From an uncultured Chloroflexia bacterium (GTDB lineage: Bacteria > Chloroflexota > Anaerolineae > CG2-30-64-16): 64,000 nucleotides of DNA. The notes beneath the pieces are model-generated. The model saw only the letters and a list, made by a program, of their open reading frames with translations. It was not told the DNA's origin and ran no database searches. Within the stretch, counting starts at the first letter, position 1; each line of letters starts with the position of its first letter. Below, piece after piece: positions 36,501 through 38,241 of the stretch. The DNA is taken from contig CAVOHP010000010.1 in NCBI GenBank assembly GCA_963695715.1, forward strand, positions 42,749 to 106,748. Direction: 5' to 3'. The position numbers and the translations under genes were made by a program.

Positions 36501-36576
36501 TGGTATCCCAGAGAGGACTTGAACCTCTGGCCTCTTCCTCCGCAGGGAAGCGCTCTATCCACTGAGCTACTGGGAC
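36501..36576 (-). tRNA. tRNA-Arg (anticodon GCG as read; the isoacceptor call needs a covariance search)
   Basis: Reverse complement GUCCCAGUAGCUCAGUGGAUAGAGCGCUUCCCUGCGGAGGAAGAGGCCAGAGGUUCAAGUCCUCUCUGGGAUACCA folds as a cloverleaf with anticodon loop CU-GCG-GA. Confidence 0.7.
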
Positions 36577-36604
36577 CTATTCGCCCTGTCCTGAAGACAG
36601 AGTC

Positions 36605-36701
36605 TGGCGGGGAGGGCGGGATTTGAACCCGCGAAGGGAGTGAGTTCCACCCTTACCCACTTAGCAGGCGGGCGCACTCGACCGGGCTATGCGACCTCCC
36701 C
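36605..36701 (-). tRNA. tRNA-Ser (GCU), long variable arm
   Basis: Reverse complement GGGGAGGUCGCAUAGCC..CCCGCCUGCUAAGUGGG..GCGGGUUCAAAUCCCGCCCUCCCCGCCA has a 7-bp acceptor stem, anticodon loop CU-GCU-AA and a long extra arm. Confidence 0.8.
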
Positions 36702-36719
36702 ATAGTGCTACCTGTTTCC

Positions 36720-36809
36720 TGGCGGAGGGAGAGGGATTCGAACCCCCGGTGACGTTGCCGCCACAACGGTTTTCAAGACCGTCGCCATAAACCGCTCGGC
36801 CATCCCTCC
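36720..36809 (-). tRNA. tRNA-Ser (UGA), long variable arm
   Basis: Reverse complement GGAGGGAUGGCCGAGCGGUUUAUGGCGACGGUCUUGAAAACCGUUGUGGCGGCAACGUCACCGGGGGUUCGAAUCCCUCUCCCUCCGCCA has anticodon loop CU-UGA-AA. Confidence 0.8.
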
Positions 36810-36899
36810 AGTACCCAGCAGGGAGCAGCCCTCGCCTCACCACCGCAGCGGAGTATAGCACGGGACGGGCTGCTCTGTCAAAAGTCGCGGTCAGATCGC

Positions 36900-38241
36900 T
36901 CACAATGCGCGACGCAGCCTGTTGCGCGTTCCATGCCGACTTCATCACCCGCCGACCTCGATGCGCGTCCATCCCCCCCATGTACGGCCGCAGCACCTCG
37001 GGCACGACGATCGAGCCGTCCGCCTGCTGATAGTTCTCCATCACCGCGATCATCACGCGCGGCAGCGCCAGCCCCGAGCCGTTCAGCGTGTGGACGTACT
37101 CCGGCTTGGCGCCCGGCTCGGGCCGGAAGCGGATGTTCGCCCGCCGCGCCTGGAAATCCACGAAGTTGCTGCACGAGCTGACCTCCAGCCACTCGCCGCA
37201 GCCCGGCGCCCACATCTCGAGGTCGTACTTGGCCGCCGCGGCGAAGCTCAGGTCGCCGGTGCACATCTGGACCACCCGGTACGGGATGCCCAGCCCGCGG
37301 CAGACGTCCTCCGCGTCGTCGACCAGCCGCATCAGCTCGTCCATCGAGGTCTCCGGCCGGACGAACTTGACCATCTCGACCTTGTCGAACTGGTGCCCGC
37401 GCTTGATGCCGCGCACGTCGCGGCCCGGCGCTCATCTTCTCGCGCCGGAAGCAGGCCGTGTAGGCCACGTGCGTAGATCGGCAGCTGCGCGCCGTCCAGG
37501 ATCTCGTCGCGGTACAGGTTGGTCACCGGCACCTCGGCCGTCGGGATCCACCAGAAGTCCTCCTCGGCGTCGCGGTAGAGGTTGTCGCCGAACTTCGGCA
37601 GGTTGCCCGTGCCCACCAGGATCTCCGCCTTGACCATGTACGGCGGATAGACCTCGGTGTAGCCGTGCTTGCTCCGTGTGCAGGTCGAGCATCCAGGTGA
37701 TCAGCGCGCGCTGCAGGCGCGCGCCCGCGCCCTTCAGCACGTAGAAGCGCGTGCCGCTGAGCTTGACGCCCGCGCTCGAAGTCGATGATGCCCAGCTCCG
37801 CGCCCAGCTCCCAGTGCGGCTGCGGCGTCGAAGTCGAAAGCCGCGGTCTCGCCCTCGGTGCGCACGACCACGTTCTCGCGTCTCGTCCTTGCCCACCGGC
37901 ACGCTGGGATGCGGCAGGTTCGGGATGCGCAGCATGGCGTCGTTGAAGTCGGCCTCGACCGCGTCAGCTCCTCGTCCAGCGTCTTGATCTCGATCGCCGA
38001 TCGTCGTCATGCGCTGCTTCAGCGCCTCCGCTTCCTCGCGCTTGCCCTCGCGCATCAGCGCCCCGATCTGCTTCGAGCCGGTGTTGCGCTCGGCGCGCAG
38101 CACCTCCACCTGCGTCAGGATCACCCGGCGGCGCTCGTCCAGGGCCAGCGCGGGTTCCACCGGCGCGTCCTCCGCGCCCAGCGCCGCCATCGCCGCCAGC
38201 ACAGCCTCTCGGTTCTCGCGCATGTACTTTATGTCAAGCAT
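36900..38241 (-). pseudogene. serS: seryl-tRNA synthetase, heavily disrupted (at least 6 frame changes), with atypical GC-rich composition
   Basis: SerRS segments are scattered over four overlapping minus-strand ORFs: the N-terminal coiled coil to ..PNLPHPSVPVGKDE, then [34 protein letters not shown], then [25 protein letters not shown], then [13 protein letters not shown], then [30 protein letters not shown]. The C-terminal frame then runs on without a stop across both tRNA-Ser genes. Confidence 0.7.

Follow-up and report, generated by a model that had tools for sequence, protein, structure and literature searches.

A frame-broken, GC-rich serS beside a tRNA-Ser cluster: an ordinary synthetase gene, probably with assembly errors and a relative's allele

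Introduction

What is to be made of a gene for an essential enzyme whose reading frame is broken again and again, whose composition departs from that of its neighbours and which lies directly beside three tRNA genes? This question is raised by serS, coding for a class II seryl-tRNA synthetase (SerRS), in the 64-kb stretch of DNA analysed here (hereafter, the window). The breaks might belong to the gene, as in a decaying copy, or to the sequence record; the composition might come from foreign DNA or have arisen in place.

Identity and position of the gene

The coordinates of the features discussed are collected in Table 1. The gene starts with an ATG at 38241 and ends at its true stop, TGA, at 36947-36945. 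Its frame changes were located by frameshift-aware alignment, with the closest intact homologue (P0001, 87% identity) as the reference. The first-pass annotation, made from the letters alone, had counted at least six switches of frame over about 1.3 kb; there are in fact nine, eight consisting of one extra base and one of a missing base, and the majority are not homopolymer-length errors. Thus, no single uninterrupted serS frame exists in the DNA as given. Once the extra bases are removed and the missing one is restored, a product of 429 codons is obtained, whose translation covers the TIGR00414 serS equivalog profile completely (positions 1-418 of 418) with 517.7 bits, well above the curated cut-off of 301.65. 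The alignment contained no internal stop, no deletion and no truncation, and left one residue unaligned. The nine frame changes, which we attribute to assembly error, bear on the sequence record and not on the identity of the gene. The last uncorrected frame (ORF 36661-37416) had been described as open across both tRNA-Ser genes; it does cover all of tRNA-Ser(UGA) and ends 41 nt inside tRNA-Ser(GCU).

Table 1. Features of the serS-tRNA locus (positions in the window)
Feature	Position	Strand	Remarks
serS (class II seryl-tRNA synthetase)	36945..38241	-	TIGR00414 match, frameshift-aware alignment
Frame-breaking indels of serS	36966..37992	-	near 37992, 37960 (base missing), 37878, 37829, 37771, 37674, 37475, 37426, 36966
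Tract very probably of a GC-richer relative's (foreign) allele	36975..38230	-	about codon 5 to about codon 419 of serS; limits approximate
tRNA-Ser, anticodon TGA	36720..36809	-	58.7 bits
tRNA-Ser, anticodon GCT	36605..36701	-	52.1 bits
tRNA-Arg, anticodon GCG	36501..36576	-	69.4 bits; native-type, identical to L086 and L001
Putative sigma-70-like promoter of the tRNA cluster	36852..36881	-	TTGACA 36881-36876, 18-nt spacer, TATACT 36857-36852
9-nt insertion CTGGGTACT	36810..36818	-	window only; abuts the native leader on one side and the 5' end of tRNA-Ser(TGA) on the other
Perfect 15-bp inverted repeat AACAGCGAGCTCCTC, loop AATGGC, GAGGAGCTCGCTGTT	36462..36497	.	separates the tRNA cluster from the convergent aminotransferase gene

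The window holds one serS locus only, and the order GlcNAc-2-epimerase, serS, tRNA-Ser(UGA), tRNA-Ser(GCU), tRNA-Arg(GCG) and convergent aminotransferase is conserved across Anaerolineae relatives. Indeed, colinearity with the window extends over 21 kb in the relatives L001 and L003 and over 12 kb in L086; the tRNA block follows serS in these three and in L005, L007, L014, L017 and L085, it lies about 1.2 kb downstream in L087, and the serS-tRNA block is also found in more distant Anaerolineae. The vicinity of serS to the tRNA-Ser genes, which had appeared notable, is therefore a conserved trait of the lineage and not a local accident, and the locus is in all probability the organism's ordinary, essential serS in its conserved place beside its tRNA genes.

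Composition and affiliation of the serS allele

The gene had been described as compositionally foreign relative to its surroundings, GC-rich and with codons ending in G or C, a description that is right and even understated. serS has 68.7% GC and a GC3 of 97.2% (93-100% in every 30-codon window past about codon 14), whereas its 14 syntenic neighbours have 59.7-67.0% GC and GC3 values of 0.71-0.86, and the coding-like ORFs of the whole 64 kb, serS apart, have GC3 values of 0.66-0.84 (overall, 66-86% for the other genes of the window). Translational selection was rejected as the cause, given that EF-G (GC3 0.774) and the adjacent large ORF 24737-26020 (0.797), which we suppose may encode EF-Tu, reach only 0.77-0.80. 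Among the relatives, a serS GC3 near 0.95 accompanies flanks of 67-71% GC, and the native-type serS of L086 has a GC3 of 0.82.

Two contigs bear on the origin of this allele: L086, which is near-conspecific and carries the native allele type, and L087, an Anaerolineales-type contig of a GC-richer lineage. The nucleotide identity between the window and L086 is 82-88% across most of serS and about 94-95% in the flanks; the two SerRS proteins share 88.6% of their residues, as compared with 90-98% for the flank proteins and with 94.9% between the SerRS of L086 and that of L001. Codons 139-419, that is the catalytic core, are 93.2% identical in nucleotide sequence to L087 and 86.0% to L086, whereas L087's own flanks are only 66-71% similar to the window. 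The nearest relative thus switches from L086 in the flanks to L087 in the serS core. The same discordance emerges from the informative sites: in serS, 13-17 quartet sites group L001 with L003 and the window with the outgroup, versus 1-5 that group the window with L001, and in the flanking genes the direction is the opposite (8-14 vs 0-6). The quartet sites of serS are not GC-directional. Synonymous sites were too saturated for breakpoint mapping by three-way nucleotide site patterns (window, L001 and L003).

On the basis of these data, we consider it highly probable that the extreme GC3 arose because the serS coding sequence, together with patches of both tRNA-Ser genes, carries the allele of a related GC-richer Anaerolineales lineage (D), in place of an L086-type native allele. 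Among the sampled relatives, L087 and L085 come nearest to D. Private sites in serS number 28 on the window branch, 136 on the L086 side and 105 on the L087 side, and private W-to-S changes occur where L086 and L087 both have A/T (for example, at codons 227, 251 and 328). A coherent D-type allele of 1.25 kb with private changes points to a real allele of an unsampled lineage, rather than to a column-wise blend of sequences resembling L086 and L087. An Actinobacteria-like origin, as had been suggested, finds no support: the names given among the 120 best protein hits listed (80-87% identical), as well as the titles of the closest contig loci, are those of Chloroflexota/Anaerolineae, and the closest DNA match of the catalytic core is the Anaerolineales-type L087 (93%). 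An actinobacterial donor was thus rejected.

The tRNA cluster and its signals

The tRNA-Arg/tRNA-Ser/tRNA-Ser cluster read by the first-pass annotation was recovered by both ARAGORN and Rfam. The region between serS and the tRNA genes is native, being about 95% identical to L086; D-type states are found again inside the cluster, in one anticodon-stem pair of tRNA-Ser(UGA) (C-G as in L087 and L085, T-A in L086, L001 and L003), in about 9 nt of the spacer adjoining tRNA-Ser(GCU) and in the long variable arm of the latter. This arm looks like a hybrid of the L087 and L086 types: its 3' strand is L087-type and its 5' strand has a T as in L086, so that a U x U mismatch results (equivalently, an L087-type arm with one extra T) and the arm consists of 5 bp, the mismatch and 1 bp, where L086, L001, L087 and L085 have clean 7-bp arms.

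Downstream of the putative promoter of the cluster, suggested by its match to the consensus and by its conservation, comes a leader (GGTGGTGAGGCGAGGGCTGCTCCCTG) that the window shares unchanged with L001, L003 and L086. The promoter spacer has 18 nt in the window versus 17 in L086 and L001; the additional G, near 36866, is probably another insertion error. The 9-nt insertion that follows the leader is absent from L001, L003, L086, L087 and L085 and may be a junction artefact. The inverted repeat at the other end of the cluster, conserved in L001, L003 and L086, is a likely bidirectional terminator.

Frame breaks and sequence errors

serS makes up 7% of the coding length and contains 9 of 23 frame-break events (binomial p = 1.6e-5), the density of indels being 7/kb in this gene versus 0.6/kb elsewhere. 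Lesions are by no means confined to it, with intact neighbours, as one would expect of a pseudogene: indels break 12 of the 26 other genes examined (18 events, 15 of them +1, corresponding to 0.60/kb). Neither does serS have disabling lesions beyond single-base indels, since stops are absent and the TIGR00414 model is fully covered. The assemblies of relatives share this condition. Over 12 kb of comparison with the window, the sister assembly L086 has 25 single-base insertions, which are clustered too, and L003 shows 12-14 frameshifts within single genes.

The non-serS indel sites lie in GC-rich contexts (0.707 within 10 nt on either side vs a background of 0.631, p = 0.004), and a GC3-dependent error model predicts 11.8 events in serS versus the 9 observed; a GC3-dependent error rate is thus suggestive, the slope vanishing when the radical SAM gene is left out. 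In that gene, the frameshift cluster (43141-43878) is accompanied by no fall in identity to L086, the informative sites being interleaved, which means that error clusters are not always the mark of foreign sequence. An exact DNA search of metagenome contigs with a 30-mer from serS returned no match, and a protein search with the 234-aa stretch over eight of the break sites returned no independent intact copy above 89% identity; neither search thus recovered a separate assembly of this population.

Long-read assemblies do carry gene-fragmenting indels, according to PMC12007338 and PMC8812927. In all likelihood, the nine serS breaks are consensus errors of an error-prone metagenome assembly and not mutations; the assembly is probably a long-read one, a platform that we infer. 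Of the readings offered by the first-pass annotation, its fallback fits best, in which errors of sequencing or assembly account for the shifts of frame and are concentrated in a hotspot here. The same insertion-type indels affect the other broken genes.

How the relative's allele entered the record

A remaining question concerns the route by which a D-type allele came to stand in an otherwise native sequence. The account that we prefer, with a probability of about 0.5, combines an ordinary serS, breaks due to error and a D-type allele brought in by chimerism at the level of the assembly. Reads, or a path in the assembly graph, from a co-occurring D population would have entered the consensus wherever the two genomes were similar enough to co-align, that is, in the serS coding sequence and in the tRNA genes, while the divergent spacers and the flanks would have remained native; mixed pileups might then have caused an additional base to be called at columns that distinguish the two alleles. 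In six of the eight serS insertions, the inserted base and the one beside it correspond to the two states of a column at which the native-type L086 allele and the GC-rich-type alleles of L087/L085 differ (null rate 0.17, p = 4e-4; 0.33 and p = 0.018 if one flank mismatch is allowed), in a test that was devised post hoc. These insertions, together with the native intergenic region amid D-type tRNA patches, the hybrid mismatched arm, the 9-nt junction insertion and the short serS branch of the window, make, in our view, a chimeric long-read consensus slightly more likely than a true homologous replacement. The idea that frameshifts are tied to switches of parental type was dropped, their association with the switch points not being significant (5/9 vs an expected 0.45, p = 0.37).

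Other observations argue against the chimera, namely the coherence of the 1.25-kb allele and the unaffected EF-G and neighbouring ORF, whose normal GC3 implies that a flood of abundant D reads swamping all conserved genes does not hold. Moreover, error clusters also occur in genes of L086 whose composition is not foreign, so that the cluster in serS does not by itself require mixed reads.

A genuine homeologous replacement is the strongest competitor, and one to which we assign somewhat less than even odds. On this view, homologous recombination with DNA of an Anaerolineales relative richer in GC exchanged the serS coding sequence and portions of the neighbouring tRNA-Ser genes; the breaks of frame would still be assembly errors, denser by chance or owing to a very GC-rich template. 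Genes for aminoacyl-tRNA synthetases are well known for undergoing lateral or orthologous replacement, and the foreign tract is coherent, ends within homologous sequence (at about codons 5 and 419) and bears private W-to-S changes seen in neither L086 nor L087. The intact and conserved repaired protein, the unaffected EF-G and adjacent ORF of the same window, the insertion clusters found elsewhere without foreign sequence and the GC-rich contexts of the non-serS indels also suit it. However, at least two separate conversion tracts (one for the serS coding sequence, the other for the patches of the tRNA cluster) would be needed around the native intergenic region of 135 nt; a mismatched variable arm would be left in tRNA-Ser(GCU); the native base beside a foreign base in six of eight insertions finds no account; and no sampled genome has the allele at more than 89% protein identity. 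Less probable, and in our opinion doubtful, is a real co-transfer of serS with identity-bearing parts of the tRNA-Ser genes (the variable arm of tRNA-Ser(GCU) and the anticodon-stem pair of tRNA-Ser(UGA)) from a GC-richer relative, which the linkage of serS and tRNA-Ser would have enabled in a free-living Anaerolineales host.

Far behind these comes the reading of the first-pass annotation, that is, a horizontally acquired, Actinobacteria-like serS decaying by frameshifts at a tRNA-linked integration site, which is already largely refuted and which we hold to be very improbable. The strongly atypical composition, the three adjoining tRNA genes and the nine breaks of the deposited sequence would fit it, but relatives keep the gene order, tRNA block included, with L001, L003 and L086 carrying serS beside the same block at the same site between colinear flanks. 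To judge from their Pfam families, the syntenic neighbours up to 10 kb away on either side include no integrase, and a search at 30-44 kb for direct repeats of a tRNA 3' end (attL/attR) returned short chance repeats only, none involving the tRNAs. Nor does the gene look like a decaying remnant: the repaired protein matches the equivalog over its full length (518 bits), being neither truncated nor interrupted by stops or deletions; decaying genes of bacteria usually show a bias towards deletions, whereas here eight of nine events are +1 insertions; like indels break 12 of the 26 other genes examined; the gene is the sole serS of the window; and the named hits listed are of Chloroflexota/Anaerolineae. 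Weaker still, a compositional drive in situ, whereby GC-biased gene conversion or codon selection would have pushed a native serS to about 100% GC3 without foreign DNA, suits the synonymous third-position differences from L001 (78 W-to-S, 3 S-to-W) and the coincidence of the GC3 anomaly with the coding sequence, but not the ordinary GC3 of EF-G and the adjacent ORF, the affinity of the catalytic core to L087, or a divergence from the near-conspecific L086 that is not confined to synonymous sites, with about 49 amino-acid differences (as against flank proteins 90-98% identical) and many differences that agree with L087/L085 in the first and second positions of codons, without any GC direction.

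Significance and comparison with known systems

As it stands, annotation of this record would yield a serS pseudogene, and the genome might be scored as lacking an essential synthetase; both calls would be wrong. With about 0.6 frame-breaking indels per kb and local clusters, any pseudogene or gene loss deduced from this or the sister assemblies needs checking at the level of the reads. More generally, a stretch of deviant composition in a metagenome-assembled contig can turn out to be the allele of a relative, brought in by real recombination or by mixing in the consensus; comparison with a near-conspecific contig reveals it through the switch of nearest neighbour. Should the replacement be real, it would represent a tidy in-place exchange of a synthetase between related Chloroflexota beside its cognate tRNA genes, and not an unprecedented one.

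The repaired product of 429 aa is a bacterial-type class II SerRS (TIGR00414; Pfam PF02403 and PF00587), matching the equivalog model end to end and 87% identical to intact Anaerolineae SerRS proteins with both Pfam domains. Unlike in known SerRS genes, the frame is broken nine times as deposited and gene callers record fragments only (a 269-aa N-terminal fragment is on record in databases), and the codon usage is far more GC-rich than that of the rest of the genome. The errors resemble the indels of long-read assemblies (PMC12007338 and PMC8812927) in being single-base events without other damage, and they affect many genes both in the window and in the sister assemblies; they differ in being strongly clustered and mostly insertions outside homopolymers, whereas PMC8812927 names homopolymer-length errors.

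Genomic islands targeted to tRNA genes share with this locus DNA of atypical composition adjoining such genes, and differ in their integrase and att repeats: here there is neither an integrase nor a duplicated tRNA end, and the stretch of deviant composition is itself an essential gene that occupies the same position in the relatives. There is also a likeness to the orthologous or homeologous replacement of aminoacyl-tRNA synthetase genes known between related bacteria, in that the serS phylogeny and composition disagree with the syntenic flanks; whether it took place in a real chromosome or in the consensus alone, the replacement here is in place and its donor belongs to the same order.

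The serS gene and its tRNA block

The seryl-tRNA synthetase gene (serS) starts with an ATG at 38241, and no frame is open throughout it, recognizable SerRS pieces being spread over all three minus-strand frames. A frameshift-aware protein-to-DNA alignment with P0001, the best intact homologue (87% identity), revealed nine frame changes (eight with one extra base, one with one missing base), no in-frame stop and a single residue left unaligned. With the last of them corrected, the reading frame closes at ...MERIEVGG-TGA, 135 nt before tRNA-Ser(TGA). The repaired product (429 aa) matches the NCBIfam serS equivalog over positions 1-418 of 418 (517.7 bits; cut-off 301.65); it is an ordinary class II SerRS of the bacterial type, and no second serS locus was found in the window. 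The first-pass annotation described the last frame as running on over both tRNA-Ser genes; an ORF does extend into that region, but it is a side effect of the ninth indel.

Features of the window discussed in the text
Feature	Position	Strand	Remarks
tmRNA gene	7299-7712	minus	Rfam 176.9 bits; predicted tag ANSGKAFTFPFARTNQLALAA
ORF beside EF-G (possibly EF-Tu)	24737-26020		GC3 0.797
Perfect 15-bp inverted repeat, 6-nt loop	36462-36497		between tRNA-Arg and convergent aminotransferase gene; kept in relatives
tRNA-Arg(GCG)	36501-36576	minus	ARAGORN, Rfam
tRNA-Ser(GCT)	36605-36701	minus	ARAGORN, Rfam
ORF over the tRNA region	36661-37416
tRNA-Ser(TGA)	36720-36809	minus	ARAGORN, Rfam
9-nt insertion CTGGGTACT	36810-36818		directly 5' of tRNA-Ser(TGA)
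serS	36945-38241	minus	stop at 36947-36945
serS frame changes	near 37992, 37960, 37878, 37829, 37771, 37674, 37475, 37426, 36966	minus	alignment to P0001
Indel cluster in a radical SAM gene	43141-43878		gene GC3 0.86; five frame-breaking indels
60-codon stretches outside serS, GC3 at least 0.95	12220-12479, 41689-41888, 42505-42900, 43446-43760, 49612-49799, 50687-50874		all short
Matches of L086 insertion clusters	36055-36445, 39090-39860

ARAGORN and Rfam agree on the three tRNA genes already recognized beside serS. The window is colinear over 21 kb with the related loci L001 (about 83% nucleotide identity) and L003 (about 78%), and over 12 kb with the near-conspecific contig L086 (93.4%); all three share the order GlcNAc-2-epimerase, serS, tRNA-Ser(TGA), tRNA-Ser(GCT), tRNA-Arg(GCG), convergent aminotransferase. 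In more distant Anaerolineae (L005, L007, L014, L017, L085), serS is likewise followed by this tRNA block, which is partial in L004, L026 and L029; it lies about 1.2 kb downstream in L087 and, inverted, about 2 kb away in L009. In several Dehalococcoidia, tRNA-Ser(TGA) is located a few kb downstream of serS. In L087 a CopG-like antitoxin gene and a DUF2442 gene (1338-1919 of that locus) separate serS from the tRNAs; the linkage has therefore been interrupted in that lineage. The linkage of serS with the three tRNA genes is thus conserved as a block in Anaerolineae; the locus is native, and its tRNA adjacency is ancestral. Given this conserved order, the lack of an integrase among the syntenic neighbours and the lack of any repeat of a tRNA end within ±7 kb, the earlier idea of a tRNA-linked integration site is unsupported. 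The tRNA genes are preceded by a conserved promoter-like element of their own (TTGACA-N17/18-TATACT) and by a 26-nt leader, GGTGGTGAGGCGAGGGCTGCTCCCTG; the window, L001, L003 and L086 share this leader without a single difference, though overall identity to the window is only 78-83% (L001, L003) or 93% (L086). The inverted repeat beyond tRNA-Arg is a probable bidirectional terminator.

Composition and source of the serS allele

In its repaired frame, serS has 68.7% GC and a GC3 of 97.2%, each 30-codon window past about codon 14 reaching 93-100%. The 14 syntenic neighbours have 59.7-67.0% GC and a GC3 of 0.71-0.86, and all coding-like ORFs of the window have a GC3 of 0.66-0.84; the gene is indeed compositionally foreign, as first proposed, relative to the 0.66-0.86 of the other genes. 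Expression-linked codon bias is ruled out as the cause by the GC3 of EF-G (0.774) and of the ORF beside it. Across 80 related loci, serS GC follows flank GC, GC3 being near 0.95 where the flanks have about 67-71% GC; relative to the L001 ortholog (GC3 0.778), synonymous third-position differences comprise 78 W-to-S and 3 S-to-W changes. Other high-GC3 stretches occur in the window, all short and none sustained like serS; the 1-kb GC at 12001-13000 is 0.669.

An Actinobacteria-like origin had been suggested; however, the best 120 protein matches listed are 80-87% identical and every source name among them is Chloroflexota/Anaerolineae, as are the titles of the records for the closest genome-contig loci; the donor is not actinobacterial. 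Between window and L086, flanking DNA is about 94-95% and flanking proteins are 90-98% identical, whereas serS DNA (about 37200-38200) falls to 82-88% and the SerRS protein to 88.6%; since the L086 and L001 proteins share 94.9%, the odd allele is that of the window and not that of L086. In serS, 13-17 quartet sites unite L001 and L003 against the window and the outgroup and only 1-5 unite the window and L001, flanking genes showing the reverse (8-14 vs 0-6); the serS sites have no GC direction (e.g., K203 vs R, N219 vs T).

The nearest neighbour switches within the gene. The N-terminal arm (codons 31-138) is 87.5% identical to L086 and 80.6% to L087, whereas the catalytic core (codons 139-419) is 93.2% identical to L087 and 86.0% to L086. 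L087 is GC-richer (flanks 66.6% GC, serS GC3 0.958), its flanks being only 66-71% similar to those of the window. The arm, though nearer L086, has a GC3 near 97%, and the window serS carries private W-to-S changes at sites that are A/T in both L086 and L087. Judging from these changes, the allele very probably belongs to an unsampled GC-rich relative (D, with L087 and L085 as closest sampled relatives) and is not a blend of L086 and L087. Native-type sequence, i.e., as in L086, makes up the final ten codons and all that lies outside the coding sequence, except for D-type patches in the tRNA cluster.

Frame breaks as probable assembly errors

Using gene models of the syntenic MAG contig GCA_038214535.1 (loci L001 and L084), 26 orthologous proteins besides SerRS were aligned to 28-62 kb of the window. 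Frameshifts were required in 12 of these genes (18 events, 15 being single extra bases; 0.60 per kb), and in-frame stops were absent from the 14 checked for them. serS, where 9 events fall within 1.29 kb (about 7 per kb), is still an indel hotspot (binomial p = 1.6e-5; Poisson p = 1.4e-7 at a flat rate). The radical SAM gene is a second cluster, but there the drop in identity to L086 seen in serS is absent.

Related public contigs with assembler-style names (ENA ERZ25039459, L003; ERZ25039477, L087; ERZ25039527, L086) were also compared. In L003 several genes, including radical SAM and GT2 genes, each need 6-14 frameshifts; L086 has 6 in its epimerase and 8 in its aminotransferase gene. The base-level alignment of window and L086 over 12 kb contains single extra bases in both (18 and 25, respectively), clustered and mostly outside homopolymers. 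The clustered, mostly non-homopolymer single-base insertions of the sister assemblies ERZ25039459 and ERZ25039527, 6-14 per gene, are of the same kind as those of the window, which suggests a common pipeline whose sequencing or polishing step is prone to a particular type of error; from the contig names and the type of error we infer a long-read origin. That an organism would have two fifths of its genes newly frameshifted and yet show no other damage is not credible; therefore, the frame breaks in serS and the other genes are very probably consensus errors. They are a property of the assembly and not of serS, and the picture of a decaying remnant does not survive the full-length equivalog, the missing stops and the same indels in other genes.

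Chimera or replacement

How a D-type serS came to stand in a native context is a separate question. We favour, at a probability of about 0.5, an assembly-level chimera, in which mixed reads would have entered the consensus. Four observations point to mixed reads. Firstly, D-type states lie beyond the 135-nt serS-tRNA intergenic region, which is itself native (about 5% substitutions vs L086): the anticodon stem of tRNA-Ser(TGA) has the D-type C-G pair, about 9 nt of the spacer next to tRNA-Ser(GCT) and one strand (3') of the variable arm of this tRNA are D-type, and single bases adjoining tRNA ends follow the same pattern, while the divergent spacer cores and tRNA-Arg are native. Secondly, this variable arm looks like a hybrid: its predicted pairing consists of 5 bp and 1 bp on either side of a U x U mismatch, where L086, L001, L087 and L085 have clean 7-bp arms. 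Thirdly, the insertion CTGGGTACT sits exactly at the leader/tRNA junction and is unique to the window, none of the five related loci compared having it. Lastly, in six of the eight insertions in serS, the added base and the one beside it are the two alternatives of a column that differs between native-type and D-type alleles (post hoc test; null rate 0.17, p = 4e-4; looser criterion 0.33, p = 0.018).

A genuine homeologous replacement of serS by the relative's allele is a tentative but serious alternative, and five observations speak against mixed reads. The D-type tract keeps its coherence over 1.25 kb, D-type composition is absent from EF-G and the large ORF adjacent to it in the same window, and the frameshifts are not concentrated at switches of parental type (p = 0.37). 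Moreover, non-foreign genes of L086 also carry insertion clusters, and in the rest of the genes the indels tend to lie in locally GC-rich contexts (p = 0.004, ±10 nt), so that a very GC-rich template might simply attract more errors. What probability remains falls to other readings; there is no support for a pseudogene, for a transfer from Actinobacteria or for a remnant of integration.

Significance and comparison with known systems

The finding is of use as a quality flag for this assembly; an in-place replacement, if real, would be mildly interesting, and the locus represents no novel type of feature. Indels that fragment genes are a recognized feature of long-read assemblies (PMC12007338, PMC8812927). 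The frame breaks of the window resemble these in fragmenting genes but differ in being mostly non-homopolymer insertions. The foreign serS allele, in turn, resembles the product of a collapsed consensus of co-occurring populations. Replacements of synthetase genes between relatives are known, and the allele is similar to these as well.
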